A DNA stretch of 64,000 nucleotides from Minisyncoccota bacterium (GTDB lineage Bacteria > Patescibacteriota > Minisyncoccia > Phycocordibacterales > PALSA-1337): NCBI GenBank assembly GCA_041671485.1, contig JBAZBL010000006.1:6539-70538 (forward strand), given 5' to 3'. Below the pieces are notes generated by a model that was given only the letters and a program-made list of their open reading frames with translations, had not been told where the DNA came from and searched no databases. This document shows, one piece after another, positions 10,837 to 55,275 of this stretch (positions are counted from its first letter, which is position 1; each line of letters opens with the position of its first letter). The translations under genes were made by a program, and so were the position numbers.

Positions 10837-10853
10837 ACGAGGTCCGACCTAGT
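10837..10853. promoter_or_regulatory. 17-bp palindrome ACGAGGTCCGACCTAGT, copy 2 of 4; lies between divergent HIT and recJ, 30 bp upstream of the recJ start
   Basis: Second copy of the 17-mer also found at 1411, 31111 and 34141. Confidence 0.4.
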
Positions 10854-13296: not shown

Positions 13297-13443
13297 CCCG
13301 AGGCCCGCCTTCGGCGGGGTAGGCCTCGGGAGTGGATTTTATCATTTCTTCAGCAGAATTTTATCAGGATTTTATCTCATTGTGATATCGTGCAGGTTGT
13401 GGAGGTTTCGTTGCGCAGGTCTACCCTGCGCAACGAAACCTCC
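13297..13443 (+). repeat. Composite repeat element, copy 1: GC hairpin (ggtaggcctcgg type), 42-nt AT-rich motif with three ATTTTATC repeats, TGaTAT box, then a REP hairpin
   Basis: Same layout at 17004-17157 and 42798-42916 (reverse strand). The 42-nt motif lies at 13337-13378 and the REP unit cgcaggtctaccctgcg at 13414-13430. The element ends 10 nt before the comEC start. Confidence 0.7.
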
Positions 13444-13453
13444 GCAAAAACCT

Positions 13454-17003: not shown

Positions 17004-17157
17004 TTCCCGATGCCTACTCTCGGAGGTCGTCGATTTTATCATTTCTTCAGCGAAATTTTATCAGGATTTTATCTCGATATGATATGGTGCAAGTTGCGGA
17101 GGCCTTGTTGCGCAGGGTAGACCTACGCACAACGTGCGTAGGTCTACCCTGCGCAAC
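17004..17157 (+). repeat. Composite repeat element, copy 2: degenerate GC hairpin, 42-nt ATTTTATC motif, TGaTAT box, then a REP doublet
   Basis: 42-nt motif at 17034-17075. REP doublet cgcagggtagacctacg (17111-17127) and cgtaggtctaccctgcg (17136-17152). Ends 10 nt before the ATG at 17168. Confidence 0.7.
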
Positions 17158-28514: not shown

Positions 28515-28608
28515 CTTATAATCAATTTAAGGTCACATTTTGTGACCTTAAAACAGATATAATTAATAAAATTGGGTTTTGGTAGATTTTATCAAAAATT
28601 TAGGAGTA

Positions 28609-28650
28609 TTTTATCATTTCTTCAGCCAAATTTTATTTGGATTTTATCTC
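28609..28650 (+). promoter_or_regulatory. Third copy of the 42-nt AT-rich ATTTTATC-triplet motif, without flanking REPs; lies 23 nt upstream of ORF 28673
   Basis: ttttatcatttcttcagccaaattttatttggattttatctc. Followed by the palindrome ttggtca gtaa tgaccaa. Confidence 0.5.
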
Positions 28651-28672
28651 TCTCTGATACAGTTGGTCAGTA

Positions 28673-30505: not shown

Positions 30506-30514
30506 ATATCTGGT

Positions 30515-30713
30515 CCCCGAGAATAATTGTCATTCTGTGAATCGAGGACTGTTTGAGCGACTATAAATTGCTTGATAAAATGCGTATGTTGTGGGAATTG
30601 CTACGATACTAAGGCATTTCTAATGCCGAAGTATCGAGCAATTCAATAGCATTTTATCTAGCAATTTAAGGAGCGAGTTCCGCAGATTCACAGAATGACA
30701 ATTATTCTCGGGG
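30515..30713. repeat. 199-nt element bounded by perfect 29-nt inverted repeats, with nested inner hairpins (MITE-like or structured RNA)
   Basis: ccccgagaataattgtcattctgtgaatc (30515-30543) and its reverse complement (30685-30713). Inner stem gaattgctacgatact / agtatcgagcaattc encloses ggcatt tcta atgcc. Fills the whole tyrS/comF convergent spacer. Confidence 0.6.
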
Positions 30714-30719
30714 ACATTA

Positions 30720-31397
30720 TTAGTGTGCTAGAGAAATACCTAAAATTCTTTCAAATCCACTTTTTTGTAGTGTATCAATAGCTTCTTTCATCGTACTACC
30801 GGTAGTGATTACATCATCAATGACAATAATTGGTATTTTATTTTGATTTGTGTCATTTTTGATTTTATCTGCAAATATATCATCCACAGAAAATATTCCC
30901 TTTGCATCTGTCAGTCGGTCAGTACGATCTTTGAGTGTTTGCCGATCGGCATGATGAATACGTCTCAAAAGTTCTTTTTCAATCACAAATCGTTTTTCTG
31001 TATCAAGCCTTGCAATTTCATCGGCCAATAATTCACATTGATTGTATCCACGTTCGTTTTTCCTCCTTTTTGTTATTGGTATAGGGATTATGATTCGTGT
31101 ATTCTCTTTTACGAGGTCGGACCTCGTGATCTCAATAAGCTTGCTATAAAGTGCATAACCACCTATCTCTGTCGCTCGTTTAGACTTCTTGTATTTGATA
31201 TTCCATATCAATCTTGTGACACGATCATCTTTATAGGCAAAGGTGGATCTCATATTTGTAAAAGGAGTTTCTGGAGCGCGAGGTAATATCTCCAATGCCT
31301 GTTCTGGCGATAGAGAAAACAACTCTTTTTCTGATTTTGTAGAAGGAAAAAGAGCTTCTAGCATTGTCTTATATATGGTAGTCAGAAAAGTTATCAT
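30720..31397 (-). CDS. comF: ComF-family competence protein (phosphoribosyltransferase fold)
   Basis: C-terminal PRTase motif IIVIDDVITTGSTM. Conserved ComF region IIIPIPITKRRKNERGYNQ. Confidence 0.8.
   Translation of the reverse strand: MITFLTTIYKTMLEALFPSTKSEKELFSLSPEQALEILPRAPETPFTNMRSTFAYKDDRVTRLIWNIKYKKSKRATEIGGYALYSKLIEITRSDLVKENTRIIIPIPITKRRKNERGYNQCELLADEIARLDTEKRFVIEKELLRRIHHADRQTLKDRTDRLTDAKGIFSVDDIFADKIKNDTNQNKIPIIVIDDVITTGSTMKEAIDTLQKSGFERILGISLAH
31111..31127. promoter_or_regulatory. 17-bp palindrome ACGAGGTCGGACCTCGT, copy 3 of 4, the most symmetric copy; lies inside the comF coding region (encodes ITRSDLV)
   Basis: Identical core to the copies at 1411, 10837 and 34141. Confidence 0.35.
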
Positions 31398-31450: not shown

Positions 31451-34141
31451 ATGAAAAAATATTTTGTTATTGTTTTCTCTGCAGTTTTTATCTTTTTGGA
31501 ATTGTATTTTTTGCCGACAGATGCACTTGCACAATGTTCAGGAAGTCCTGATCTTGCAACTCATGCGAGTGAACAGATTGACAGTAGAATAAGCCAAGCA
31601 TCTTCAGGGACTGGTCTCAATTTATTTTCTGATTTTATGTCAACTCTCAATATGACCGGCGCACAACTTGTTTCTCTCACCGATAAACCAAACTCAATGC
31701 AAGAGAACATTGATTCATGGGCAAAGAAGGGAATACCTCTTGATTTTACTGGAGTAGCTACATGGAACGATTGGAATGGATCATCAAATCCTGTTTATCA
31801 GGGCGCGGCTACTCTTATTACACCTAGACATTTTGTAACTGCTACCCACATTAAACTACCCGTTGGAACAAAAGTCACATTTATCAAACCAGATGCGAGT
31901 ACTACTACAAGAATAGTTACTGGTTTTGAGAATATACCAAATAGTGATGTGACTGTAGAGGTGCTTGATAGCGATGTTGATCCCTCCATAAAGTATTACA
32001 AAGTAATAGATATTACAACTTTTTGGAGTCTTCTATCTAAGAATGTTCTTGAAGGGTCTTCAGAAGTTCCAATTGCTGTTTTTAACCAAGGACGACAGCC
32101 TTTTATACATTCCTTGGGTGTAAATTTGGCAAATCCATATAATAAAAATCCATACAATAGTATTCCGCATTATCCAAGTTCTATAAGAGCGAGTTTTAGT
32201 TCTTATGTAGGACCTGGTGATTCTGGTCAACCGGGATTTTTGATTGTTGAAGACACGCCAATACTTCTTTTTGTAAATACAACTAATACTGAAGGGTCAA
32301 ATGTTGGTTCTCGCATTACAGAGATCAATCAAGCTATCAATTCTCTGGGAAGTGGTGGTTATAGCGCAACTCTATATAATTCATCTTGTTTTACAAAATA
32401 CCCGATTACTCCTACTGTCACTTCTATTTTAACAGACGTTGGTTCTATTAGTTGTCTCCAAAATACGCCAACCTGTAGAATGACAATATTTGGTATTGGA
32501 TTCACATCTCAAAATAATACAGTTAAAGTTGGTATATTAGATATTGGTAATATCTCCTCATATAATAATGGTACTGCGATTGATGTTAATATTCCAACTG
32601 ATTTATCTGCTGGTACTTACAATGTTGTGATCTCTAATAGCGAGGGTACATCAAATCCAAAAATATTCATGATGCTAAATAATTCCTCATTTCCATCTAT
32701 CACATCTGTCTCTCCTTCATCTGGTCCAATGGGTTCAACAATCACTCTAATAGGTGCGAATTTCTCAATAAGTGGTACAAATAATATAAAATTTGCACCT
32801 ACTACAGGTTTTAAACCTGAAATTTCTCTTCAATCTACAAATGTAACTCAAAACGGAACTCGTCTTACAGCAACTCTTCCAAACGAAGATTATCCTGTAG
32901 GTACAGTATTTACTATTTGGATTGATAATGCCGAATTTGGCTATAGCGATGAAAATTCATCATATGAGAGAAATCCTAAAACATTTACTGTAGCTTTACC
33001 ACCACCAGTAGTAGAACAAGACACTACTCCTCCTGTTCGAAGTAATGGATTACCATCAAGCACTCTATCAGCCACAACAAATTCTACGAATGTCTCTCTT
33101 AGTACAAATGAATCAGCTGTCTGTCATTGGAGTAGTGGACCAAATAATACTTTTGATCAGATGTCAGGCAGATTTAACAGTTCCAATAATGGAACATCTC
33201 ATTCTGTGAGCGTTACTCTAACTCCTGGTAATTCATATAGTTATTACATAAAGTGTCGTGATCAAGCAGAGAATACAAATACTCAAGATTTTCCTATATT
33301 ATTTGCTGTTGCTAGTTTGCCAGCCGAAGAAAACCCTCCTTCCGATACTACTCCTCCAAATATCTCTATCAATTCTCCATTAAATAATGAATCGTTCGTT
33401 GAGGGTACAAAGACTATCAGTGTTTCTACTTCTGATAATGTGGGTGTAGTCGGTGTTCAATATTATCTAGATGGGACAAGGCTAGATTCCGAAAAGACGA
33501 CAGCACCTTGGACTATTACAAAAACTTTTACTCCTGGTACATACAGTATATATGCAATTGCTCGTGATGTGGCTGGTAATCGCAAGACATCAAATACTAT
33601 TATATTTAATGTAACTAAAAAACCAGTTGTTATTGTCCAACAACAACCAATCATTAATCCTCCAATTATAAATCCTATAAACACTCAACCACCAGTCATG
33701 CCTATTCAAGAAAATGATGAAGTTCCATTCAAGGCCGTTGCTACAGAGATCAATCGCAACCTTGCCCTAAATGATGAAGGTGAAGATGTTCTCCTATTAC
33801 AGAAAGTTCTTAATAAGCTTGGCTATGAAGTTGCTACCAATGGTCCTGGCTCTATTGGTAAAGAAACGACATATTTTGACAATAATACAAAAGAAGCACT
33901 TGCGAAGTATCAATCTGATCATTCTGAAGAAGGGATAGTATCTACTGGCATACTAGATAATGTAACTATGGCTATAATAAATGTCGAAGCAGAAAAGTTG
34001 ATCAAATACACAGAAGATGAAGCAACTTCTACAGATCAGATTCTGGATAAAAGAGTAGAAATAACATCAGTAGCGACTTTCTTTCTGTATATATTTGATA
34101 CATTAAGATTATGGGGATCTAGTATCATCAACTTGTTTTGA
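31451..34141 (+). CDS. Large secreted surface protein (896 aa) with Ig-like repeats and a C-terminal peptidoglycan-binding domain
   Basis: Signal peptide, Ser/Thr/Asn-rich repeats, Big-like modules (DTTPPNISINSP...YAIARDVAGN). PG_binding_1-like LNDEGEDVLLLQKVLNKLGY...EALAKYQ. Confidence 0.7.
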   Translation: MKKYFVIVFSAVFIFLELYFLPTDALAQCSGSPDLATHASEQIDSRISQASSGTGLNLFSDFMSTLNMTGAQLVSLTDKPNSMQENIDSWAKKGIPLDFTGVATWNDWNGSSNPVYQGAATLITPRHFVTATHIKLPVGTKVTFIKPDASTTTRIVTGFENIPNSDVTVEVLDSDVDPSIKYYKVIDITTFWSLLSKNVLEGSSEVPIAVFNQGRQPFIHSLGVNLANPYNKNPYNSIPHYPSSIRASFSSYVGPGDSGQPGFLIVEDTPILLFVNTTNTEGSNVGSRITEINQAINSLGSGGYSATLYNSSCFTKYPITPTVTSILTDVGSISCLQNTPTCRMTIFGIGFTSQNNTVKVGILDIGNISSYNNGTAIDVNIPTDLSAGTYNVVISNSEGTSNPKIFMMLNNSSFPSITSVSPSSGPMGSTITLIGANFSISGTNNIKFAPTTGFKPEISLQSTNVTQNGTRLTATLPNEDYPVGTVFTIWIDNAEFGYSDENSSYERNPKTFTVALPPPVVEQDTTPPVRSNGLPSSTLSATTNSTNVSLSTNESAVCHWSSGPNNTFDQMSGRFNSSNNGTSHSVSVTLTPGNSYSYYIKCRDQAENTNTQDFPILFAVASLPAEENPPSDTTPPNISINSPLNNESFVEGTKTISVSTSDNVGVVGVQYYLDGTRLDSEKTTAPWTITKTFTPGTYSIYAIARDVAGNRKTSNTIIFNVTKKPVVIVQQQPIINPPIINPINTQPPVMPIQENDEVPFKAVATEINRNLALNDEGEDVLLLQKVLNKLGYEVATNGPGSIGKETTYFDNNTKEALAKYQSDHSEEGIVSTGILDNVTMAIINVEAEKLIKYTEDEATSTDQILDKRVEITSVATFFLYIFDTLRLWGSSIINLF

Positions 34142-34157
34142 CGAGGTCTGACCTAGT
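34141..34157. promoter_or_regulatory. 17-bp palindrome ACGAGGTCTGACCTAGT, copy 4 of 4; lies 45 bp upstream of pilM, flanked by gtttt / aaaac
   Basis: Shares the core with the other three copies. Confidence 0.4.
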
Positions 34158-34201: not shown

Positions 34202-35299
34202 ATGTCGTTTTTCTCTTCATTTTTCAAGAAAGAAGTCAGCGTTCTAGGACTAGATATAGGTTCTTCGGCTATCAAAATAGTACAGATCAAGAAAAAACGG
34301 GGAAGAGCCGTTCTAGAGACTTATGGCGAATTGGCACTTGGTCCTTATGCAGGAGTAGAGATAGGCAGAGCAACTAGTCTACTAACAGAGAAGATAATAG
34401 AAGCAGTAAAAGATATATTACGTGAAGCAAAGACAACTACAGTATCGTGCGGTTCAGCATTACCACTATCTTCTAGTCTCATAACCTTTATCACAATTCC
34501 TGCTGTTTCAGAAAAACAGATTGCAGATGTTATAGCACTAGAAGCACGTAAATATATACCAGTACCACTTAGTGAAGTCATGATTGACTATTCTATAGTT
34601 CCACGCGAAGAAGCATATGCTACAGAAGACGAGACGACCAAAACAGAAAAAGCAGGTAGAGACGTACTTGTAATTGCAGTTCACAATGAATATATCAATT
34701 CGTATCAATCAATATTATCAGGCTCTGGTCTTGTGCCTAGCTTTTATGAAATAGAGATTTTCAGTTCGATCCGTGCTGTTATGGACCAAGGTCTTAGTAC
34801 AAGTATGATTCTCGATTTTGGCGCACGTTCTACCAAGCTATATATCGTAGAGCGTGGAATATTGCGTTCATCACATATCATCAATAAAGGCAGTCAAGAT
34901 ATCACTCTTGCATTGTCAAAAGCATTGTCTATATCTATAAGCGAGGCCGAAAACCTAAAGCGTGTCCGTGGTTTGAAAGGTGGACCAGAATACAAAGAGC
35001 TGACAGAGATCATAACTGTAAATCTTGATTATATATTTTACGAGGCAAATGCTACACTTTTGAGCTATCAAAAGAAATATTCCAAGAATGTAAGTAGAGT
35101 CATACTTACAGGTGGTGGAGTTTTACTCCAAGGATTCACTGATTTGGCAAAGGTCGGTTTCCAAACAGAAGTTTTGTATGCAAATCCATTTGCAAAACTA
35201 GATACACCAGCATTCCTGGGAGAAGAATTTGCAAAAGCAGGACCAGAATTTGCAGTTGCTATAGGTATTGCATTACGTAGATTGTCGGAAGTTGAATAA
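34202..35299 (+). CDS. pilM: Type IV pilus assembly protein PilM (actin-like ATPase)
   Basis: 365 aa. LGLDIGSSAIKIVQI N-terminus with an FtsA/PilM fold. Followed by membrane proteins in pilN/O/P positions. Confidence 0.8.
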   Translation: MSFFSSFFKKEVSVLGLDIGSSAIKIVQIKKKRGRAVLETYGELALGPYAGVEIGRATSLLTEKIIEAVKDILREAKTTTVSCGSALPLSSSLITFITIPAVSEKQIADVIALEARKYIPVPLSEVMIDYSIVPREEAYATEDETTKTEKAGRDVLVIAVHNEYINSYQSILSGSGLVPSFYEIEIFSSIRAVMDQGLSTSMILDFGARSTKLYIVERGILRSSHIINKGSQDITLALSKALSISISEAENLKRVRGLKGGPEYKELTEIITVNLDYIFYEANATLLSYQKKYSKNVSRVILTGGGVLLQGFTDLAKVGFQTEVLYANPFAKLDTPAFLGEEFAKAGPEFAVAIGIALRRLSEVE

Positions 35300-35349
35300 G
35301 TTTACACAGGGTAGACCTGCGTATATACGCAGGTCTACCCTGTGTAAAC
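35300..35349. repeat. REP doublet (REPIN-like) placed just after the pilM stop
   Basis: gtttacacagggtagacctgcg tatata cgcaggtctaccctgtgtaaac, a 50-nt perfect palindrome. Confidence 0.8.
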
Positions 35350-35396
35350 TTATTCACAGCGTAAAAAGACTTTATATCTGATATAATACACAAAGT

Positions 35397-39166: not shown

Positions 39167-40225
39167 ATGGATCAAAAAAAAGAAATTGATGAATTGGTAG
39201 ATCTAATTTTGAAGGAGAATGCATCTGATCTGCACCTCTCTTCTGGTAGGCAACCTATCATACGTGTGGCAGGAGGACTTATACCACTGGTCAAAAAACC
39301 ACAATTGACCGATGAAGATATGAAGCAAATCCTCAATGTATTCCTGACTCCAGAAAATAAAATACTTCTAGAAAAAGACAAAGATGTTGATTTTTCATAC
39401 AGTCTCACAAATGCTCGATTTCGTGGCAATGCATACTATCGTCAAGGGTCTCTATCGATAGCTTTGAGACTAATACCAAAAGCAATCCGCTCTATATCCG
39501 AACTCAATTTGCCACCAATATTGGAGTCTTTTACTAGGAAAGCACAAGGTTTCTTCTTGGTTGTTGGACCAATAGGCCAAGGGAAGACCACCACTCTTGC
39601 TAGTTTGATAGAACTTATCAATCAGACTAGGACAGAACATATCTTGACTATAGAAGATCCAATAGAATATTTATTTGAATCTAAAAAATCAATTGTTGAT
39701 CAAAGGGAAGTGCGTTTGGATACACCAGATTTTCACAATGCTTTGACTGCCATGTTTCGTGAAGATATGGATGTATGTATGGTAGGTGAAATGCGTGATG
39801 TAAATACCATGGCAACGGCTGTTACTGCAGCAGAGACAGGACATCTCGTATTCTCTACATTGCATACGAACAATGCATCACAAACTATAAACCGTATTAT
39901 TGACTCTTTTCCTTCTACGCAACAAGATCAAATACGTGTACAATTGGCAGGCTCTCTTACAGGTATTTTCTCGCAACGTTTGATATCACGTATTTCTGGC
40001 GGTCTCATTCCTGCCTATGAGCTTCTTATCAACAATAATGCTGTGTCAAATCTGATTCGTGAAAAGAGAATACATGAAATACAGACTGTTATAGAGACTA
40101 GTTCTCAAGAAGGTATGGTAGATATGAATCGCTCTCTCTCTGAACTTGTTCGAACAGGGGAAATAACAGTAGAGAGTGCATATATGAATTCGTTAAATCC
40201 AAAAGTATTGGAGCGTATGCTATAG
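39167..40225 (+). CDS. pilT: Twitching-motility/retraction ATPase PilT
   Basis: 352 aa. Walker A GPIGQGKTTT, PilT motifs. Confidence 0.9.
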   Translation: MDQKKEIDELVDLILKENASDLHLSSGRQPIIRVAGGLIPLVKKPQLTDEDMKQILNVFLTPENKILLEKDKDVDFSYSLTNARFRGNAYYRQGSLSIALRLIPKAIRSISELNLPPILESFTRKAQGFFLVVGPIGQGKTTTLASLIELINQTRTEHILTIEDPIEYLFESKKSIVDQREVRLDTPDFHNALTAMFREDMDVCMVGEMRDVNTMATAVTAAETGHLVFSTLHTNNASQTINRIIDSFPSTQQDQIRVQLAGSLTGIFSQRLISRISGGLIPAYELLINNNAVSNLIREKRIHEIQTVIETSSQEGMVDMNRSLSELVRTGEITVESAYMNSLNPKVLERML

Positions 40226-40234
40226 AAAATTATT

Positions 40235-41446
40235 ATGTTATTCAATTATCAAGCATTAGACCAGAGTGGGGCAAAGAAAGAAGGAGCAATTGATGCTATC
40301 AATGTTGATATTGCTATATCATCTCTACAGAGGCGTGGCTTTGTTGTTACTGGTATCAGAGAGGCAGATAGTGGCAGGTCACTCTTATCTAGAAATATTG
40401 CATTTTTTGATCGTGTATCTACGAAAGAGGTTGTTATATTGTCTAGACAACTTGCAACATTATTCGAAGCACAGGTTTCTGCCTTGCGCATATTCCGCCT
40501 ACTTGCTGCAGAAACAGAAAATGCAACATTGGCAAAAAAGTTAACAGAAGTTTCCGATGATTTGCAAAGTGGTAATTCTATATCTGGAGCATTGTCAAAA
40601 CACCCCAAGATATTTTCCCAATTTTATATAAGTATGGTAAAAGCTGGAGAAGAATCTGGCAAACTAGACGATACTTTCCAATATCTAGCCGACTATCTAG
40701 ATCGTACATACGAATTGTCTTCAAAAGTCAAAGGAGCACTCATATATCCTGCTTTCGTCGTATTTACATTCATTACTGTTATGATACTCATGTTTACGGC
40801 TGTAATACCAAAGATAAGTGCTATCATAGTAGAATCAGGCACAGAAATACCTGTATATACAAAGATAGTTCTAGGTATTAGCAACTTTCTTACTAGTTAT
40901 GGATTTGTCATTCTTGGAGTACTTATCATTCTAGGGTTCTTCCTCATACGCTTTATACGTACACCTCCTGGACGATATGCATACGACCATTTCAAGCTGG
41001 AAATACCTTATATTAGTAGTTTATTTAGGAAACTTTATTTAGCAAGAATGGCAGACAATATGTCTACTATGCTATCTTCTGGTATTCCTATGATAAGGGC
41101 TCTAGAACTAACTTCCGATGTTATAAACAATACTGTATACAAAAATATCTTGTCCGATGCAGTAGAGTCGGTAAAAGGAGGACAGACTCTTTCGGATTCT
41201 CTTTCGAATAATCCACGTGAAATACCGGGTATCATGACTCAAATGATGAAAGTCGGTGAAGAATCGGGTGAGCTTGCAACGATATTGAAGACTGTTGCAA
41301 AGTTCTATGGTAGGGAAGTGACTACTGCGATAGACTCTCTAGTTTCTCTCATCGAACCAGCTATGATCGTCCTTTTGGGAGGTGGTGTAGCGGTACTTCT
41401 AGCATCGGTTCTTCTGCCTATTTACAATATTGCAAGTACGCAGTAA
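40235..41446 (+). CDS. Second PilC/GspF platform protein
   Basis: 403 aa with two T2SS-F domains. Confidence 0.9.
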   Translation: MLFNYQALDQSGAKKEGAIDAINVDIAISSLQRRGFVVTGIREADSGRSLLSRNIAFFDRVSTKEVVILSRQLATLFEAQVSALRIFRLLAAETENATLAKKLTEVSDDLQSGNSISGALSKHPKIFSQFYISMVKAGEESGKLDDTFQYLADYLDRTYELSSKVKGALIYPAFVVFTFITVMILMFTAVIPKISAIIVESGTEIPVYTKIVLGISNFLTSYGFVILGVLIILGFFLIRFIRTPPGRYAYDHFKLEIPYISSLFRKLYLARMADNMSTMLSSGIPMIRALELTSDVINNTVYKNILSDAVESVKGGQTLSDSLSNNPREIPGIMTQMMKVGEESGELATILKTVAKFYGREVTTAIDSLVSLIEPAMIVLLGGGVAVLLASVLLPIYNIASTQ

Positions 41447-41510
41447 TTTGTTTACCATTTTTGATTTTTTATCTTTGATTTTTGATTTATATTGTTATCC
41501 CCAATTGCTC

Positions 41511-41541
41511 TTGAATATATTAAAGTCATAGATGTTATAAT
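41511..41541 (+). promoter_or_regulatory. Candidate sigma70-type promoter for pilA: TTGAAT, 19-nt spacer, extended -10 TGtTATAAT
   Basis: TATAAT at 41536-41541 with TG two bases upstream. About 70 nt upstream of the pilA ATG. Confidence 0.4.
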
Positions 41542-41609
41542 ATGTCTTGAACAACCTTGTTTAAGGTCTGTTATTAAAGGTTTTATTATTAATAATTATT
41601 AAATAAAAT

Positions 41610-42101
41610 ATGAAAAAATCATATTCAAGAGGTTTCACTCTTATAGAATTGCTAGTTGTTATTGCCATCATCGGTATTTTGGCGTCAGTTGTGTTGGTGA
41701 GTTTGAATAGTGCGAGAAATAAGGGAAAAGATGCTAGAATCATTTCAAGTGTTCAACAGATTAGAACATTGGCAGAGGGGGGTTACAATAATGGTCTTTA
41801 TCTTGATTTTATTGGCGACAGTGACACAACATACAATGAGACAGTTGCTGGTGCTTTAAATACTGCCGGCCCAAACAATACAGCGGTTGCACAGCTTGTA
41901 GCTGATATGACAGCAAATGCTGGATCTGTAGTTTATATGGTTACTGAGGGTAGTACTAACATTGGTGTATCTGCTTATGCAGTATATGGAGCTCTTCCAA
42001 GCTCTCCATCTGGTTCAACCAAGTATTTCTGTCTTGATTCTACTGGAAAGACTAATCAATATGCTAGTGCTGCTTCAACCGTAACTTGCCCAGCTAACTA
42101 G
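41610..42101 (+). CDS. pilA: Major type IV pilin PilA
   Basis: MKKSYSRGFTLIELLVVIAIIGILASVVLV is a class III prepilin leader and conserved N-terminal helix. Confidence 0.85.
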   Translation: MKKSYSRGFTLIELLVVIAIIGILASVVLVSLNSARNKGKDARIISSVQQIRTLAEGGYNNGLYLDFIGDSDTTYNETVAGALNTAGPNNTAVAQLVADMTANAGSVVYMVTEGSTNIGVSAYAVYGALPSSPSGSTKYFCLDSTGKTNQYASAASTVTCPAN

Positions 42102-42179
42102 TACCTAGAGACTTTCTTTATGCCCCATACGTGGTAAATCATCAAAACCTAGTTTCGGCTAGGTTTTGTGTTTGGGGGA

Positions 42180-42234
42180 GTTTACGCAGGGTAGACCTGC
42201 GGGGGAATCCCCCGCAGGTCTACCCTGCGTAAAC
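42180..42234. repeat. REP doublet (REPIN-like) next to the RAYT gene
   Basis: gtttacgcagggtagacctgcg ggggaatcccc cgcaggtctaccctgcgtaaac, a 55-nt perfect palindrome. Preceded by the pilA terminator aaaacctagtttcggctaggtttt. Confidence 0.8.
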
Positions 42235-42792
42235 TCTAATAATACTACCTTGAGGTCTATTTTCTCCCAAATAGTCTTTATAACTAGAGAATTCGTATTT
42301 CTTTGAGTATTCTATTGCTTGAGCCAAATATTCAGGTTTGGCAGTTTTCATGAGATCTGGTTCATCTATACTATACGGATTCAAGTGTATGTATTGGATC
42401 AAATATCTCAAATATTCATCATTATCAATATGTTTTTCTTTGTATTGTCCTTGAAATATTGTTCCAGAGTGGTCATATTTTCTGTTGTAATACATTGCGT
42501 ATGATGTGCACAGTTTACGAATAAATCTAGTAATACCACCATCAGTTTTTTCTTCTACTCCTATATGAAAATGGTTTGGCATAAGACAATAGGCAAATAT
42601 GTCGACAATTATATCTCGATTATATTGAAACATGTCTAATGGCTTTATACTACGCAGGTCTACCCTGCGTGTATCATTTGCTGTGTAGAGTAGAGTTATA
42701 AATCTTTCATAATCACCCCTATCTAAAAATATTGGTGCTTTATGGGCTCCACGATTGTATATATGATATTTTTCTCCTAATATATGTGACAT
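42220..42792 (-). CDS. IS200/IS605-family Y1 (HUH) transposase of the REP-associated type (RAYT, TnpA_REP-like)
   Basis: 190 aa from ATG 42792 (MSHILGEKYHIYNRG...). HUH motif NHFHIG, catalytic Tyr region YLRYLIQYIHLNP. Flanked by REP hairpins. The ORF-track start at 42828 translates a REP. Confidence 0.8.
   Translation of the reverse strand: MSHILGEKYHIYNRGAHKAPIFLDRGDYERFITLLYTANDTRRVDLRSIKPLDMFQYNRDIIVDIFAYCLMPNHFHIGVEEKTDGGITRFIRKLCTSYAMYYNRKYDHSGTIFQGQYKEKHIDNDEYLRYLIQYIHLNPYSIDEPDLMKTAKPEYLAQAIEYSKKYEFSSYKDYLGENRPQGSIIRVYAG
42653..42669. repeat. Single REP unit inside the RAYT coding region, in frame
   Basis: cgcaggtctaccctgcg encodes part of ANDTRRVDLRSIKP between the first conserved block and the HUH motif. 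Confidence 0.6.
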
Positions 42793-42797
42793 TAAAT

Positions 42798-42916
42798 TTA
42801 CGCAGGGTAGACCTGCGTAAACAACCATATCACACCGAGATAAAATCCTGATAAAATTTTGCTGAAGAAATGATAAAGTTTTTATCCGAGGGTAGGCCTC
42901 GGAGGCCTACCCTCGG
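42798..42916 (-). repeat. Composite repeat element, copy 3 (reverse strand): GC hairpin ccgagggtaggcctc g gaggcctaccctcgg, 42-nt ATTTTATC motif, TGaTATGGT box, REP; directly upstream of the RAYT start
   Basis: 42-nt motif at 42837-42878 (reverse strand). REP cgcagggtagacctgcg at 42801-42817. 31-nt perfect GC palindrome at 42886-42916. Confidence 0.7.
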
Positions 42917-42961
42917 CAAACCGCGGTGGTTGCAACATAAATAACATGTTATAATCCTTGT

Positions 42962-43429
42962 ATGAAAAAGTCTGGCTTTACTCTAATAGAACTTCTAGTT
43001 GTGATTGCTATTATCGCCATATTGACATCCATCGTAATGACCAATTTCTCATCATCGCGCTCCAGGGCGCGAGACGCTAAGAGGGTTTCAGATTTGGGAC
43101 AGATTCAGTTGGCGCTTGAACTTTATTTTGATAGGTGTAAGGAGTATCCAGGTTCATTTTCTACGTCTGCTAATAATGGTTGCCCTTCAGGTATTAGTCT
43201 AATTACATATATTTCACAGATTCCATCATCTCCATCACCAGGATCATATGGCTATCATTTTAATGATAATACTGTTCCTTATAATCCTAATGATTATGTC
43301 TTACATGTAACTCTTGAAAACCAGAATGAAGTCACAATAGATGGAAGACAAAATATTTCAGGTATAGTTTATCCAACTCCATTGCCAACTTGTAATCAAG
43401 TTAAAGAATATTGCATCGGCCCCAAATAA
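42962..43429 (+). CDS. Second type IV pilin
   Basis: MKKSGFTLIELLVVIAIIAILTSIVM prepilin N-terminus. 155 aa. Confidence 0.8.
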   Translation: MKKSGFTLIELLVVIAIIAILTSIVMTNFSSSRSRARDAKRVSDLGQIQLALELYFDRCKEYPGSFSTSANNGCPSGISLITYISQIPSSPSPGSYGYHFNDNTVPYNPNDYVLHVTLENQNEVTIDGRQNISGIVYPTPLPTCNQVKEYCIGPK

Positions 43430-43444
43430 TACCCCTATCTGTAA

Positions 43445-44245
43445 ATGAATACCTCATCACTCATCCTTTCCTTCATCTTCGGTGCTGTGGTCGGTAGTTT
43501 CTTGAATGTTGTAGCAATTAGATTTAATACTGGCAAAAATATAGGTGGTAGGTCGAAATGCATGTCTTGTAGCAAGACACTTGAATGGTTCGAACTTGTA
43601 CCTATATTTAGTTTTATTTTCCAGAGAGGAGCGTGCAAGAAGTGCAAAAGCAAGATTTCTTGGCAATATCCACTCGTAGAATTTATCGCAGGAGCTATAT
43701 TTGTCTTGTTATTCTTCACATTCCCGCCAATATCCTATATTTCTGGCATAACTACATTCATCCAGATATTGTGTGCCTGTTTACTTCTAGTCATTGTAAT
43801 ATATGATATAAAACACAAGATAATACCAGATTCATTTGTATATTCATTTGATATTATTGCTCTTCTTGGCCTATTTATCGGTGGAATTTCTCTTTGGCAT
43901 ATACCTACTTTCTCGCAATTGATAGCTGGTCCACTTCTTGCTATACCTTTTGCATTTCTATGGCTCATATCTGGAGGGAAGTGGATGGGCTTCGGTGATG
44001 CAAAACTTGTACTCGGCATAGGGTGGCTTTTGGGTATAAATGCAGGAATAAATGCAATCATACTTTCTTTCTGGATAGGTGCTATAGTGTCTGTCGCTTG
44101 GCTTTTTGTGAATTACAAAACATTCAAGCGCAATGTTGAAATACCATTTGGTCCATATCTTGTACTTGGAATGTATCTTGTTCTCATATTTGGTATACAA
44201 GTGATCAATCTTGATATTTTATTGACAGCGATTGGTTTTTCGTAG
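43445..44245 (+). CDS. pilD: Prepilin peptidase PilD (A24 family)
   Basis: Tetracysteine CMSC...CKKC, polytopic membrane domain with conserved Asp residues. Confidence 0.85.
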   Translation: MNTSSLILSFIFGAVVGSFLNVVAIRFNTGKNIGGRSKCMSCSKTLEWFELVPIFSFIFQRGACKKCKSKISWQYPLVEFIAGAIFVLLFFTFPPISYISGITTFIQILCACLLLVIVIYDIKHKIIPDSFVYSFDIIALLGLFIGGISLWHIPTFSQLIAGPLLAIPFAFLWLISGGKWMGFGDAKLVLGIGWLLGINAGINAIILSFWIGAIVSVAWLFVNYKTFKRNVEIPFGPYLVLGMYLVLIFGIQVINLDILLTAIGFS

Positions 44246-44247
44246 CA

Positions 44248-44297
44248 GTCCCGCAGGGTAGACCTGCGGGGGATCACGCAGGTCTACCCTGCGGGAC
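44248..44297. repeat. REP doublet (REPIN-like) between pilD and the pseudopilin operon
   Basis: gtcccgcagggtagacctgcg ggggatca cgcaggtctaccctgcgggac. Confidence 0.8.
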
Positions 44298-44320
44298 AGG
44301 AAAAGATGTATAATATAATC

Positions 44321-44959
44321 ATGAAATTACGTTGCGAACTCGGTAGTCGTGCTTTTACACTCATTGAACTTCTTGTATCTATATCAATATTTGTATTTAT
44401 GACAGCACTCCTTCTAGCCAAATATGGCAATTTCAATCAGAGCGTTCTCATGACAAATCTAGCATACGATATGGTTCTCACTCTTCGTACTGCGCAAACA
44501 TATGGTTTGAGCGTTCAAGGAGATACTAGTGGTTCATCACCGACATTTGGGCAGGCATATGGTGTTGCGTTTTGCAAGAATACTTCTTGCAATGGCACAT
44601 CGAACAATCAAAATATGATAATGTTTGCTGATAATAATAAGAATGGAGTATATAATACTGGTACTCCTCCAGATTCTATAGTTGCAAATTATTCTATAAA
44701 GCGTGGAGCAAAAGTACTTGGTTTTTGTGATAAACAAGATGGAAGCGGTTGCATTAGTACTGGTGGTACAAATAGTTCAATAAGCAGTGTTGATATAAGT
44801 TTCCTGCGCCCAGATCCAAATGCAATTATTTGTACTACAAAGAATAGTTCTGTAGATTGTAATAATAATTATATAAAAGTTATCCTACAAAGTAGTGATG
44901 CTTCAAATATTAGAAGTATAGTCGTACGTAGTACAGGACAGATGTCTGTAGAAGAATAA
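44321..44959 (+). CDS. Prepilin-type pseudopilin
   Basis: SRAFTLIELLVSISIFVFMTALLL N-terminus. The first ATG of the ORF is at 44306; the start is ambiguous. Confidence 0.6.
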   Translation: MKLRCELGSRAFTLIELLVSISIFVFMTALLLAKYGNFNQSVLMTNLAYDMVLTLRTAQTYGLSVQGDTSGSSPTFGQAYGVAFCKNTSCNGTSNNQNMIMFADNNKNGVYNTGTPPDSIVANYSIKRGAKVLGFCDKQDGSGCISTGGTNSSISSVDISFLRPDPNAIICTTKNSSVDCNNNYIKVILQSSDASNIRSIVVRSTGQMSVEE

Positions 44960-44960
44960 T

Positions 44961-45566
44961 ATGAAATACCGAGGATTTACACTCATAGAAATGATAGTGT
45001 CTCTAGGGATCTTTTCCGTTGTTGCTGTCATATCGCTCGGAGCATTGATGAGGATAATCTCTGCAAATCACAAAGCACAAGCTATACAATCAGCATTCAC
45101 AAACCTCAATTTTGCCCTAGAATCTATGTCTCGCGAAATAAGAATGGGGGCAAACTATCATTGCGAAGCAGGATTCAATACATATTCTGGAAGTGGCATT
45201 TCAGGTAAAGCATGTGATATCGGCAATAATTCGACAATATTTTTTGAATCATCCAAAACCAAAACATTACAAAGTGGTAATGGTAGTTGCCGTTTGGTAT
45301 ATAGTTATTATTTTAGTGGTTCTGCTCCCAACTATATTCTCAAGAAAGCTCAACAAAGTAATTGTAATGACCCTATAAATAACAATAGTTTTTCAGAAGT
45401 CATTTCACCCAATATAACTATTACAGATTACAAACTAGGAGTAATAAAAGGATCAACTGACAATTATCCCAAAGTCTTTATCCGTATATCTGGCGAAGCA
45501 GGTATAAAAGAAAAAGAAAAGACGTTTTTTGATGTGCAGACTAGTATATCGCAGAGGATTCGATAA
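44961..45566 (+). CDS. Prepilin-type pseudopilin
   Basis: MKYRGFTLIEMIVSLGIFSVVAV. Confidence 0.7.
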   Translation: MKYRGFTLIEMIVSLGIFSVVAVISLGALMRIISANHKAQAIQSAFTNLNFALESMSREIRMGANYHCEAGFNTYSGSGISGKACDIGNNSTIFFESSKTKTLQSGNGSCRLVYSYYFSGSAPNYILKKAQQSNCNDPINNNSFSEVISPNITITDYKLGVIKGSTDNYPKVFIRISGEAGIKEKEKTFFDVQTSISQRIR

Positions 45567-45574
45567 ATAAAAAT

Positions 45575-46093
45575 ATGAAGCAAATATCAAATAGGAAAAA
45601 TAATGTAAGAGGGTTCACCATAGTAGAAACATTGGTGGCAATAACCATTCTTATGATAGCTATTGCAGGCCCACTCGTTGCTGCAAATAGGAGTTTGACT
45701 GCTGCACTATATGCAAAAAATCAGGCAATAGCATCATTTTTGGCAATGGAGGAGATAGAATTGATAAGGTCGTACAAAGATAACACTTCCAATTTCAGTA
45801 CTTTCAAAAATCTTTGTACTTCTGGTAGTTATTGTTATGCCTCATGGGATAATAGCGGTTCAATAGGCTATGGACAGTGTAATCCGATAGCAAATTCTTG
45901 TAAGATATATTTCAATAATAGTTATGGTTATACAAATCTAGCTGTTAGCACAAATACTATATTCAATAGATATTATATCTTTAATGAGATTTCTAGTAAT
46001 GAAGTCAAGGTCACAGCATTCGTATATTGGAATGAAGGCAAAATACCGAGTGAGGTTAGGATTACAAGCTATATGACTGATGCATCACTCTGA
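45575..46093 (+). CDS. Prepilin-type pseudopilin
   Basis: VRGFTIVETLVAITILMIAIAGPL. Confidence 0.7.
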   Translation: MKQISNRKNNVRGFTIVETLVAITILMIAIAGPLVAANRSLTAALYAKNQAIASFLAMEEIELIRSYKDNTSNFSTFKNLCTSGSYCYASWDNSGSIGYGQCNPIANSCKIYFNNSYGYTNLAVSTNTIFNRYYIFNEISSNEVKVTAFVYWNEGKIPSEVRITSYMTDASL

Positions 46094-46098
46094 TCATT

Positions 46099-46635
46099 AT
46101 GACAAATAGGAAAATACAATCTGGATACACATTACTATTTGCTGTTCTCACCGCATCTCTTGTCTTGGGCGTTGCAGCTTTTGTTGCTGGAATTGCTAGG
46201 AAGCAATATATAATATCTGCTACAGCTAGAGATTCTATCTATTCATTTTATAATGCAGATAGTGCTATAGAATGTATCATATCTAGTATGTCTAGTTGGC
46301 CTAGCGCCACTTCGAGTCTTGCCAGTGTTACTTGTAATAATGTTACTACAACATTAGGAGTTTTTAGTGATCTAGGATTAGGAATTCCCTCATTCAATGG
46401 CTCATATAAGGTATATGAAAATATTAATAATATTTCTTTTGGTTTAAATGGTTCAGATGGTTGCTCTGTTTATAGTATAAAGGTTGGATACAATACTGAT
46501 ACTCCACCAATGGAGAAGGTGGTAATAGAAGCAAGTGGTTACAATGTCTGTATCGAGGATCCTACTAGTCCAGGAAACTTTAAACCAGCCAATAGTCGTC
46601 GAACTGTAGAAAGGACTATTCGTCTGACTCAATAA
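46099..46635 (+). CDS. PilX-like or minor-pilin membrane protein (hypothetical)
   Basis: 178 aa. N-terminal hydrophobic helix GYTLLFAVLTASLVLGVAAFVAG. Last gene of the pseudopilin run. Confidence 0.4.
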   Translation: MTNRKIQSGYTLLFAVLTASLVLGVAAFVAGIARKQYIISATARDSIYSFYNADSAIECIISSMSSWPSATSSLASVTCNNVTTTLGVFSDLGLGIPSFNGSYKVYENINNISFGLNGSDGCSVYSIKVGYNTDTPPMEKVVIEASGYNVCIEDPTSPGNFKPANSRRTVERTIRLTQ

Positions 46636-46663
46636 AAATGCCAATTCATGGTATTCTAAAGCC

Positions 46664-48727
46664 ATGAAAACAGTAGAGAAAAAAGCTACAAAAGAGGCAA
46701 AAGAGCGCCTAAATAAGCTCAAAGAGACGATAGAATACCATCGTTACAATTATCATGTACTCGATAAGCAAGAGATTTCAGCATCGGCACTTGATAGTCT
46801 AAAACATGAATTGGCAATCCTCGAGACAAAATATCCAGAATTGATTACCACTGATTCACCATCACAGAGAGTAGGAGGGGAACCACTTCCAGAATTCAAG
46901 AAGGTAAAACACGTCATACCACAATGGTCTTTAAATGATGCCTTTGCTCCAGAAGAAATACAAGAATTTGATGCAAGAGTAAAAAGGTTCTTGATACAAG
47001 GTGGTATAAATAATCCCAAGCCAACATATACTTGTGAGCATAAGATAGATGGACTAAAAATTGTACTTAATTATGAAAATGGTGTACTAAAGCAAGTTGC
47101 AACTAGAGGAGATGGCATTGTCGGTGAAGATGTTACAAATAATGTGAGAACCATAGATTCTGTACCATTGAAGCTCAAAAAACCATTGTCAATCATCGTT
47201 GAAGGAGAAGCGTGGATGGCAAAGAGTACACTTAAAAGCTTGAATAAAGAACGTATCAAAGATAGAGAAGAGCCATTTGCGAATCCTAGGAATCTAGCGG
47301 CTGGTTCTATTCGCCAACTGGATCCGAAAGTAGTGAGAGAAAGGGGGTTAGATTCATTTATTTATGATATTGCGAGGATTATACCACCGCCTGCGACGGT
47401 CGAGGCGGCTACGATCTTGCCGTCAACACAATTGGCTGAGTTAAATCTTTTAAAGTCGCTTGGTTTCAAGGTAAATAAGCACTATAAACATTGCAACAAT
47501 ATTGAAGAAGTCATTGCATATTGGCGAGAATGGCAAAATAAAATGCCAAAAGAGGATTATTGGGCTGATGGTATTGTAGTAAAAGTAGATGAATTGGAAT
47601 ACCAAAAAATTCTAGGATTTACAGGCAAAGCACCACGTTGGTGTATAGCATTCAAATTCCCAAGTGAAGAAGTTACGACTATTCTAGAAGATATTGTCTT
47701 TCAAGTTGGGCGTATGGGCACTATTACACCAGTTGCTATATTGAAGCCAGTGTCTATAGGAGGTTCAACAGTTTCTAGAGCAACATTACACAATGAAGAT
47801 GAAATAAAACGTCTTGATGTTCACATTGGTGATACTGTCATACTCAAGAAAGCAGGAGATGTAATACCAGATATAGTTGGTATTGTGAAAGAGATGAGGA
47901 AGAGCAATTCTAGACCATTCAAATGGCCTACACATATAGCAGGATGTGGTGGGGATGGAAAGATAGAGAGAGTACCCGGTGAATCGGCATGGAGATGTGT
48001 AAATAAAAATTCTTTTGAACAAGAAAAGCGTAAACTTTACTATTTCACTTCTAAACACTGCTTTGATATTGACGGACTAGGTCCAAAGATCATAGATCTT
48101 TTGCTAGAACACAATCTTATTGCAAGCTCAGATGATATATTTACACTAGAAAAGGGCGATCTCGATAGTTTGCCACGTTTTGCGGATAAATCTGCAGACA
48201 ATCTGATAAAAGCTATTGAAAAAGCAAAGAAGGTGACATTGCCAAGATTTTTGGCCTCACTTTCTATCCCTCAACTAGGAGAAGAGACATCATATGATAT
48301 AGCCAAGAATTTTGGAACAATTGAAAATATTCAAGATGCAACAAAAGAAAAGTTTGAATCAATCTATGGTGTTGGGCCAGTAGTTGCCAAGTCTATTGCA
48401 GATTGGTTCAAAAAAAGTGAAAACCGTAAATTAGTTAGCAATCTACTGAAATACGTGAAGATAATTCCCGATGAATCAAATGCAAATGAAGCCAGTCAAA
48501 TTTTCAACGGTAAATCTTTTGTATTTACTGGTACTTTGCCAACATTGGAGCGTGAAGAAGCACAGCAATTAGTAAGAAAAAATGGAGGGAATGTATCTAG
48601 TTCCGTATCAAGCAAGACTTCATTTGTAGTTGCTGGCGATGATGCTGGGTCAAAGTTAGATAAAGCGAGGAGTTTGGGGGTGAATATAATAGATGAGAGT
48701 GAGTTCCTAAGGCTTTGCGCAGGGTAG
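46664..48727 (+). CDS. ligA: NAD-dependent DNA ligase
   Basis: Adenylation motif KIDG (CEHKIDGLK), OB fold, Zn-finger region, HhH and BRCT domains. Stop codon TAG lies inside a REP unit. Confidence 0.95.
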   Translation: MKTVEKKATKEAKERLNKLKETIEYHRYNYHVLDKQEISASALDSLKHELAILETKYPELITTDSPSQRVGGEPLPEFKKVKHVIPQWSLNDAFAPEEIQEFDARVKRFLIQGGINNPKPTYTCEHKIDGLKIVLNYENGVLKQVATRGDGIVGEDVTNNVRTIDSVPLKLKKPLSIIVEGEAWMAKSTLKSLNKERIKDREEPFANPRNLAAGSIRQLDPKVVRERGLDSFIYDIARIIPPPATVEAATILPSTQLAELNLLKSLGFKVNKHYKHCNNIEEVIAYWREWQNKMPKEDYWADGIVVKVDELEYQKILGFTGKAPRWCIAFKFPSEEVTTILEDIVFQVGRMGTITPVAILKPVSIGGSTVSRATLHNEDEIKRLDVHIGDTVILKKAGDVIPDIVGIVKEMRKSNSRPFKWPTHIAGCGGDGKIERVPGESAWRCVNKNSFEQEKRKLYYFTSKHCFDIDGLGPKIIDLLLEHNLIASSDDIFTLEKGDLDSLPRFADKSADNLIKAIEKAKKVTLPRFLASLSIPQLGEETSYDIAKNFGTIENIQDATKEKFESIYGVGPVVAKSIADWFKKSENRKLVSNLLKYVKIIPDESNANEASQIFNGKSFVFTGTLPTLEREEAQQLVRKNGGNVSSSVSSKTSFVVAGDDAGSKLDKARSLGVNIIDESEFLRLCAG

Positions 48728-48757
48728 ACCTGCGTGAACACGCAGGTCTACCCTGCG
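48718..48757. repeat. REP doublet overlapping the ligA stop codon
   Basis: cgcagggtagacctgcg tgaaca cgcaggtctaccctgcg. The ligA stop is TAG 48725-48727. Confidence 0.8.
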
Positions 48758-48784
48758 CAACCTCAAATGTGATAAACTCACAAT

Positions 48785-49083: not shown

Positions 49084-49158
49084 TGTGTCATCCTCGCGAA
49101 AGCGAGGATCCACAATGTTATGAAAGACATGGATCCTCGCTTTCGCGAGGATGACACA
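49084..49158. repeat. 75-nt palindromic double-hairpin element filling the gatC-gatA spacer
   Basis: gtgtcatcctcgcgaaagcgaggatcca ... tggatcctcgctttcgcgaggatgacac. Each arm contains its own cctcgc gaaa gcgagg hairpin. Confidence 0.6.
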
Positions 49159-55139: not shown

Positions 55140-55275
55140 GCAAAAAGCCCATCACGGGTAGAGTCCGAAGACTCTCATACAAGTTTCCCTGTATGGCGGA
55201 TTACGCGACCCCATGATGGGTTCTTTATGCGTAATCCGACTTCCTTTCGCCATGCCCCAAAAAGAGGTTTAGGCT
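55140..55275. other. About 135-nt densely structured non-coding region (candidate ncRNA or replication/recombination site)
   Basis: Nested stems gagtc cgaa gactc, ggattacgc...gcgtaatcc, cccatgatggg and atggcg...cgccat. Lies between the divergent cassette and ORF 55377. Confidence 0.3.

Follow-up and report, generated by a model that had tools for sequence, protein, structure and literature searches.

A probable REPtron-like system, a single RAYT-type gene with its hairpin repeats, in the pilus locus of a Paceibacterota genome

We analysed a 64-kb stretch of contig JBAZBL010000006.1 (assembly GCA_041671485.1), referred to here as the window, from a genome of the Paceibacterota within the Candidate Phyla Radiation (CPR). 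The window contains a Y1 transposase-like gene and a family of short hairpins that resemble repetitive extragenic palindromes (REPs). We consider it probable that together they form a REPtron-like system, in which a single, apparently vertically inherited enzyme of the REP-associated tyrosine transposase (RAYT, or TnpA_REP) type occupies a fixed site in the pilus locus, and its cognate 17-nt hairpin has spread as singlets and as doublets similar to REPINs (REP doublets forming hairpins). We infer the binding, cleavage and mobilisation of the hairpin by the enzyme, as well as any regulatory effect, by analogy with known systems.

The hairpin repeat family

The repeat unit is a 17-nt hairpin with a 6-bp stem (CGCAGG/CCTGCG) and a 5-nt loop (GTAGA). 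With up to two mismatches allowed, the 17-mer CGCAGGGTAGACCTGCG was found 13 times in the window and not once in 100 dinucleotide-preserving shuffles, in agreement with an earlier reading of this DNA from its letters alone (the sequence-only reading), which had counted at least 13 copies at exactly these positions. Ten of the 13 copies pair into five inverted doublets, all of them perfect palindromes, and the remaining three are singlets (Table 1). Inverted pairs are therefore commoner than singlets (five against three, a small sample), which is one of the properties expected of REPINs, and the REPIN-like layout proposed earlier holds. Perfect palindromes with spacers of 6–11 nt had been foreseen as well, while the total length of the doublets, given before as 50–55 nt, was measured as 46–64 nt. 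Both variant hairpins listed in the sequence-only reading are present, one of them upstream of the RAYT gene. Folded as single-stranded DNA, each doublet forms one long hairpin of −29 to −38 kcal/mol (z −9 to −18 versus shuffled controls), and the singlets form stems of 7–10 bp with a 5-nt loop at approximately −10 kcal/mol (z −6 to −7). The guanine and cytosine (GC) content of the repeats is 71%, versus approximately 37% for the window, a richness that had also been noted from the letters. The tetranucleotide GTAG sits in the loop of the unit hairpin; a doublet also allows a reading in which GTAG forms the foot of the central hairpin and faces CTAC (a ‘double foot’).

The sites between 40088 and 47818 are 100% identical, palindromes included, in two contigs that were assembled independently from other sequencing runs, so the repeats are no assembly artefact. 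The repeat family is real, with chance and artefact excluded.

The RAYT-like enzyme

The only open reading frame (ORF) in the window that carries HUH and Y1 motifs, with both strands scanned, is located at 42220–42792 on the minus strand, as the sequence-only reading had maintained, and the window holds one copy of it. The gene is intact and codes for a protein of 190 aa whose translation contains NHFH and YLRYLIQYIHLNP; its start at 42792 is backed by the homologues, all of which begin there. Its sole Pfam domain is Y1_Tnp (PF01797), matched over residues 60–136 with a score of 34.7 bits (cutoff 23). An alignment of 64 homologues showed no variation at H74 and H76 of the NHFH motif or at Y134, N138 and P139 of the YIHLNP motif, and Y134 is likely the catalytic tyrosine. 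The Y motif has the class-2 form Y---NP, unlike the Y---Q of IS200, and the C-terminal tail carries an SS motif, conserved as YSS(Y/F)KDY.

Sequence searches against the PDB gave nothing with the single protein and only marginal matches with the family profile (E 0.04–0.07), and a fold search was therefore needed. The top PDB match of the AlphaFold (AF2) model, which has a predicted local distance difference test score of 92.9, was 4er8, the Escherichia coli TnpA_REP bound to a REP hairpin (E 7.7e-7); the TnpA structures of IS608 and ISDra2 ranked next, and the top PDB matches were all Y1 transposases. The protein thus has the features of the HUH/Y1 superfamily, a ferredoxin-like fold with the HUH metal-binding motif and the catalytic tyrosine on a helix that follows. 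As is the case for RAYT/TnpA_REP genes, the gene is flanked on both sides by the palindromic repeat, which is also dispersed over 13.4–48.7 kb. Flanking repeats had been reported before, and that stands for the 3' doublet and the 5' singlet, whereas the copy at 42653–42669, then taken as a flank as well, lies inside the ORF. Together, the Y1_Tnp match above its cutoff, the best fold match to 4er8 and the class-2 Y motif agree with the RAYT identity assigned from the letters and support its classification as a Y1 HUH enzyme of the RAYT/TnpA_REP kind.

More than 1,250 homologues of approximately 190–230 aa were found, and those that are named come nearly all from Patescibacteria. Some database annotations already name such homologues ‘REP element-mobilizing transposase RayT’, and a database entry for the identical protein, from a 75-kb contig, is titled ‘MAG: transposase [Candidatus Paceibacterota bacterium]’. 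An exact look-up with the 190-aa form had no match; a 202-aa call of the same gene matches exactly on two contigs, which are identical to the window and hence uninformative on mobility.

Arrangement of the repeats around genes

In the sense of the RAYT gene, the variant doublet is followed by an AT-rich element (42877–42824), a REP singlet, the ORF and the 3' doublet. The upstream singlet ends 4 nt short of the ATG and is inverted relative to the internal copy. The proximal (right) arm of the 3' doublet encodes the last five RAYT codons, the loop triplet TAG being the stop. The position of the upstream singlet is also occupied at the homologous loci L081 (GCA_964543075.1) and L087, and in the syntenic locus L081 the 3' doublet is found at the equivalent position, as is a canonical doublet at the place of the variant one.

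Four of the five doublets lie at the 3' ends of co-directional genes in the pilus locus, and further copies are found in the leaders of ComEC and RAYT. The placement at gene ends in the pilus/competence locus described in the sequence-only reading was confirmed for the PilM stop, the pilin, the prepilin peptidase and the LigA stop. Except for the copy inside the RAYT gene, all sites are intergenic, in a leader, or within the last five codons plus the stop, assuming curated starts: the ATG at 42792 is used by all RAYT homologues, and the stretch upstream of ComEC and ORF 17168 is a module that recurs before other genes. With naive first-ATG ORFs, 5 of the 10 REP site midpoints are non-coding (P 0.003), which is a weak test of intergenic enrichment because such ORFs over-extend through leaders. 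The stop codons of RAYT (42220–42222) and LigA are both the TAG of the REP loop GGGTAGACC; both proteins end in ...AG encoded by the repeat, as do the RAYT orthologues in L081 and L088.

The AT-rich element is approximately 55 nt long, follows the pattern ATTTTATCATTTCTTCAGCnAAATTTTATCAGGATTTTATCTC..TGATA, and each copy is located approximately 60–110 nt before a start codon. It is frequently bracketed by REPs; among the three non-RAYT genes that it precedes (ComEC, ORF 17168 and ORF 28673), a REP follows in the leader of two. It also occurs in a related contig (L124:204–243). A scan for the sigma-70 consensus at the RAYT-upstream copy, the sole copy scanned, called no promoter. The element is possibly a promoter, an operator or a regulatory module, or part of a composite mobile unit.

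Table 1. Positions of REP hairpins, variant hairpins and AT-rich elements in the window
Feature	Position	Strand	Context
Variant REP-like GC-rich hairpin, related to CCGAGGGTAGGCCTCGG type	13297–13330	+	Upstream of AT-rich element
AT-rich 55-nt element	13336–13391	+	Upstream of ComEC
REP singlet 13414–13430, tip of 23-bp hairpin	13397–13447	−	ComEC leader
AT-rich 55-nt element	17033–17088	+	Upstream of ORF 17168
REP doublet (CCTACG variant)	17107–17157		Between AT-rich element and ATG at 17168
AT-rich 55-nt element	28608–28665	+	Upstream of ORF 28673
REP doublet (CACAGG variant), 64-nt perfect palindrome	35293–35356		Overlaps PilM stop
REP doublet, 59-nt perfect palindrome	42178–42236		3' flank of RAYT; after N_methyl pilin gene
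Internal REP singlet	42653–42669	−	In frame within RAYT ORF
REP singlet, 10-bp stem and 5-nt loop (17-mer 42801–42817)	42797–42821	+	5' flank of RAYT
AT-rich 55-nt element, three ATTTTATC repeats	42824–42877	−	Upstream of RAYT
Variant REP doublet, CCGAGGGTAGGCCTCGG type, stem CCGAGG/CCTCGG, 31-nt palindrome	42886–42916		Upstream of RAYT
REP doublet	44248–44297		Starts 3 nt past prepilin peptidase (PilD) stop
REP doublet	48715–48760		GTAG loop provides LigA stop codon (48725–48727)

Inheritance, turnover and dispersal

The gene order of the window is conserved in L081, running from pilM through pilB, pilT, pilC and a pilin gene to RAYT, and on to a pilin gene, pilD, further pilin genes, ligA, gatC and gatA. 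Between the two, RAYT is 71% identical, compared with 40–80% for its neighbours (LigA 54%, GatA 63%). This synteny, together with a divergence like that of the neighbouring genes, argues for vertical descent of the RAYT gene under purifying selection, as has been described for domesticated RAYTs (PMC5581495). The same position in the pilus locus is partly retained in L088, and the gene context differs in L082, L085 and L087.

L081 has a GC content of 53.5%, versus 37% for the window, and contains the identical 17-mer 11 times in 20.6 kb. The comparison of REP positions between these relatives, suggested in the sequence-only reading, showed that copies near the gene (the upstream singlet, the internal copy and the 3' doublet) are common to both, while distal sites differ: those at the 3' ends of pilM, pilD and ligA occur in the window only, and those at the pilC/pilin junction, at one pilin junction and upstream of ligA in L081 only. 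Such differing occupancy is the pattern expected if repeat units were gained and lost, and the comparison as a whole points to vertical inheritance of the enzyme with turnover of the repeats.

The repeats are dispersed over 35 kb of the window and are also found in related contigs; they are not confined to this stretch, which was one of the ways in which the sequence-only reading might have failed, another being the lack of a Y1 HUH match. The REP, the variant REP and the AT-rich element are all present on L109 and L124, a pair of metagenome contigs from a single sample, with no RAYT seen on the examined DNA, so the family is not confined to the neighbourhood of the gene; in L109, a 30-nt stretch is identical to the variant hairpin at 13297–13330. 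Of the 73 stretches returned by a metagenome scan for the 17-mer, only L105, L109, L110 and L124 hold multiple copies; the other 69 contain one match each, come from unrelated contigs that mostly have a high GC content, and are most plausibly chance hits.

Survey of distant homologue loci

We surveyed 85 loci with homologues that are 30–75% identical to the RAYT protein, counting GC-rich hairpins that were present at least three times per locus. In the contig scan for relatives, the best identity was 57% among the matches listed, which did not include the source genome and its closest relatives. A hairpin family is present at the gene in 31 of the 85 loci, with a copy inside the gene in 19. 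The association is strong, as 94 of the 138 locus-specific hairpin sites lie within 300 nt of the Y1 gene, a zone that makes up 8.2% of the DNA (p ~5e-68). A typical locus has three copies: one precedes the YHxYNRG motif by approximately 70–110 nt, one is at the stop codon and one lies within the ORF. The hairpin sequences differ by genome, for instance TCCAAGGTCGAACCTTGGA, GCGAAGGAGGGTCCTTCGC and TAACGATCCCGTATCGTTA, and in most of them AGG/CCT closes a loop of 5 nt. The upstream and downstream hairpins follow no fixed orientation rule, being inverted in about half of the loci and direct in the other half.

Internal copies occur at three places: in an insert of 20–35 aa before the HUH motif (between helix A and strand 2), just after YIHLNP, and in the C-terminal tail. 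The insert is specific to CPR homologues and absent from the non-CPR relatives L071, L074 and L080. A single ancestral internal site was rejected: the sub-position and the reading frame vary between clades, and the insert therefore looks like a region that has been repeatedly rewritten by each genome's own hairpin.

Homologous genes are very common in Patescibacteria. At L082–L084, where the homologue (P0004) is 71% identical, the hairpins at the gene have diverged (internal CGCAGGTGCGACCTGCG, 3' CTCATGGTAGACCTGAG/CTCAGGTGCGACCTGCG, 5' CGCAGGTCTATCCTATG) and no dispersed hairpin copies were found at these loci, which may represent a decaying system.

The internal in-frame hairpin

In the window, the internal REP (42669–42653) encodes RRVDLR as part of the variable insert that separates helix A from strand 2. 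The length of this insert is unchanged in close homologues, several of which retain RRVDLR. In a codon alignment of six orthologues, these 17 nt rank fourth in conservation among the 17-nt windows of the coding sequence; their mean pairwise identity of 0.855 (median 0.706) is comparable to that of the HUH motif region. The codons are largely frozen (Arg AGG in 6/6, Asp GAC in 6/6 and Leu CTG in 5/6), whereas other invariant Arg and Leu columns have a pairwise codon identity of approximately 0.2. In L087, Leu CTA is paired with a change of Arg CGC to CGT, a compensatory synonymous double change that preserves the stem. From the frozen codons and the compensatory pair, we conclude that the internal hairpin is preserved as a nucleotide sequence, whether through selection or through continuing homogenisation with other copies. 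The internal REP is not a simple insertion polymorphism, a possibility that we rejected since inserts are similar in length with or without a recognisable hairpin.

We tentatively raise a further possibility, which we do not think likely, that the internal hairpin is not simply a tolerated insertion but functions within a ‘three-hairpin’ cassette (upstream, internal, downstream) by which a patescibacterial RAYT-like branch is defined. It might serve as a binding or cleavage site that limits or senses the enzyme's own expression, or as a protected master copy that reseeds the genomic REPs. If true, such a cassette would explain both the tracking of each genome's own hairpin by the internal copy across lineages and the synonymous freezing.

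Comparison with known systems

The system resembles the E. coli REPtron (TnpA_REP/RayT YafM with REP sequences and bacterial interspersed mosaic elements; 4er8) in having a monomer-size HUH/Y1 enzyme, for which it provides the best structural match, in the chromosomal gene, single in the window, flanked by cognate hairpins, in the GTAG within the repeat, and in the dispersal of the hairpins at intergenic or intercistronic sites, often as inverted pairs. It differs in that the sequence similarity is marginal (profile E 0.07) and in the in-frame hairpin inside the gene. Moreover, the stem of the E. coli REP is bulged and carries GTAG at its foot, whereas here a perfect stem of 6–10 bp has GTAG in its 5-nt loop, and the enzyme motifs are NHFH, FQ and YIHLNP instead of the DHLH, WE and YIHYNP of subclass 2.2 (PMC6006769).

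In terms of motifs, the protein fits TnpA_Y1 subclass 2.1, whose signature comprises NH[YF]H, FQ, Y[IV]HLNP and a serine motif in the proximal tail (PMC6006769). This subclass equals Group 1 of Bertels and largely consists of the ‘TIRYT’ proteins of Di Nocera et al. 2013 (PMC3733652). NHFH, TIFQG, YIHLNP and the SS tail are all present here, which is a motif assignment only. Unlike members of subclass 2.1, the protein lacks a distal helix-turn-helix-like C-terminal domain (190 aa versus a median of 238), has the CPR-specific insert before the HUH motif, and is accompanied by a clear hairpin family with GTAG that flanks the gene, lies inside it and is dispersed.

The motifs of the classical REP-associated subclasses 2.2 and 2.5, and also those of 2.4, do not fit the protein. 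Subclass 2.4, found in Cyanobacteria and Bacteroidetes, has ‘double foot’ REPs, as well as in-frame REPs inside tnpA_REP that have been called unique to it (PMC6006769). In-frame cognate REPs in the enzyme's own gene, and doublets that can be read as a GTAG...CTAC double foot, are thus shared with our system; however, the motifs of 2.4 are WQ and YIxNNP, and the internal copies here are located before the HUH motif, just after the Y motif or in the tail. In-gene hairpins are thereby recorded for a further clade and at further positions. With the REPIN–RAYT systems of Pseudomonas (Bertels and Rainey 2011; Groups 2 and 3), our system shares inverted doublets that outnumber singlets, a RAYT gene, here apparently single-copy and vertically inherited, that is flanked by the repeat, and a repeat that persists across related genomes, but the doublets described here are much shorter (spacers included, 46–64 nt) and the protein belongs to a different group.

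Weighing of the evidence and alternative explanations

Several observations weigh against a REPtron-like system. In the profile searches proposed by the sequence-only reading, the protein passed the Y1_Tnp cutoff and missed the equivalog cutoff of NCBIfam NF047646 (REP_Tyr_transpos; 40.6 versus 80 bits), though this was its best NCBIfam match; it is therefore not an equivalog of the curated family. Subclass 2.1 has been reported without nearby REPs, with only terminal inverted repeats (Quentin et al. 2018, PMC6006769). GTAG is in the loop here and at the 5' foot in canonical REPs, and most homologue loci have other loop sequences. Most of these loci also have only 2–4 local hairpin copies, so spreading is no general property of the family. 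Finally, no REP polymorphism was found between the window and the two other assemblies of the same population (40088–47818).

Among the alternatives, the one that survives best, though we regard it as unlikely, is that the hairpins are mainly host elements, such as terminators, mRNA stabilisers or DNA-uptake signals, and that the Y1 gene sits among them or was invaded by them. This would suit the doublets at 3' ends in the pilus locus and the copies in the ComEC and RAYT leaders, as well as the many copies near competence and pilus genes; furthermore, hairpins with the folding energies of the doublets would stall polymerases in a genome of 37% GC. However, no T-run follows any of the hairpins and a terminator scan called only the internal copy, on the antisense strand, leaving a role as intrinsic terminators unsupported. 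Uptake sequences are normally frequent within genes, whereas the sites here, the RAYT copy excepted and curated starts assumed, lie outside gene interiors or reach no further than the last five codons and the stop. In dozens of unrelated genomes a genome-specific hairpin occurs at the Y1 gene and almost nowhere else, a distribution not expected of a general terminator or uptake signal. A secondary host role as operon punctuation in the pilus/competence locus is plausible.

Slightly less probable again is an ordinary autonomous insertion sequence of the IS200/IS605 family, with the flanking hairpins as its ends and the dispersed ones as solo ends or derivatives of the miniature inverted-repeat transposable element (MITE) type. 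The enzyme has the fold and the HUH/Y chemistry of IS608 and ISDra2 TnpA, and presumably also recognises hairpins on single-stranded DNA as they do. Upstream and downstream hairpins are co-oriented like insertion sequence ends in about half of the homologue loci, and the gene stands in different contexts in L082, L085 and L087. On the other hand, the 64 kb hold one copy of the gene, its position in the pilus locus is shared by the window, L081 and, in part, L088, and its divergence matches that of its neighbours. The class-2 YIHLNP motif is not that of IS200 transposases, a tnpB partner is lacking, the neighbours being pilin genes, and the dispersed units are palindromes of 17–64 nt and not element ends with guide sequences. 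Chance or an assembly artefact, conceivable in that palindromes can arise from chimeric assembly, has a negligible probability given the shuffled controls, the two other runs and the occurrence of the family in the independent assemblies L081, L109 and L124.

Proposed mechanism

For the REPtron-like system, we propose a mechanism modelled on TnpA_REP and the IS200/IS605 transposases (PMC8266576). The enzyme would bind the folded hairpin on single-stranded DNA, most likely at replication forks, and cut beside it via Tyr134, with His74 and His76 providing the metal site. Rejoining of the strands could copy, delete or replace hairpin units. All copies, whether flanking, internal or dispersed, would stay matched to the enzyme through this activity or through selection for binding. 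For the hairpin inside the gene, either the homogenising activity or selection would account for its retention, and such selection might stem from feedback of the enzyme on its own expression. The palindromes dispersed over gene ends and leaders probably double as punctuation of transcripts in pilus and competence operons. Since the loop sequence differs in most relatives, conserved recognition more likely depends on the loop length of 5 nt and on the AGG/CCT top of the stem than on GTAG.

Other features of the window

A second hairpin family, ACGAGGTC[CG]GACCTCGT, occurs at 1411–1427, 10837–10853, 31111–31127 and 34141–34157 (4 sites versus 0.02 expected). It has the AGG-N5-CCT pattern of stem top and loop that is common to the REP and to the hairpins beside many patescibacterial RAYT homologues; the window contains no further RAYT. 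At 31111, the hairpin is in frame (ITRSDLV) inside a phosphoribosyltransferase (PRTase)/ComF-like ORF.

A near-perfect hairpin of approximately 203 nt at 30513–30715, with perfect outer arms of 31 nt and an RNA fold of −113 kcal/mol (z −14.6), is located between a convergent tRNA-synthetase-like ORF and ComF/PRTase-like ORF. It matches no Rfam family; approximately 70 nt are 83% identical in L109, and it is absent from the equivalent junction in L081. It could be a MITE, a bidirectional terminator or an RNA of a kind not yet known. A perfect palindrome at 49084–49158 (arms of 29 nt, spacer of 17 nt), built on CCTCGCGAAAGCGAGG, directly precedes the amidase (GatA-like) gene and shows no sequence relationship with the REP. 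At 55160–55275 on the minus strand, a LOOT RNA (Rfam RF03000) was matched with 72.7 bits versus a gathering score of 46.4. ORF 23982–28451 (1489 aa) contains diverged tandem repeats at 25552–26878 with periods of approximately 310 and 630 nt (families D1 and D8), which suggests a repetitive surface protein.

Significance

To our knowledge, REP/RAYT systems have been studied almost solely in Proteobacteria and a few other phyla, and a full-text literature search found no paper linking RAYT, TnpA_REP or REP with CPR/Patescibacteria. While a REP/RAYT-type system is itself of a known kind, its occurrence in a CPR lineage, the subclass 2.1-like motifs, the recurrent upstream, internal and downstream layout, and the hairpin that is unchanged across a large compositional shift set this one apart. 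They imply that very small genomes keep, and sometimes amplify, a REP/RAYT system, that a protein class thought to be REP-less can have REPs, and that a hairpin can remain identical while the genomic GC content moves from 37% to 53%. The enzyme's gene repeatedly hosts its own target hairpin, a trait reported as unique to subclass 2.4. The many independent hairpin/enzyme pairs of Patescibacteria constitute a natural co-variation data set on how Y1 enzymes read hairpins, and the palindromes in the pilus and competence operons may affect the expression of machinery on which these cells depend.

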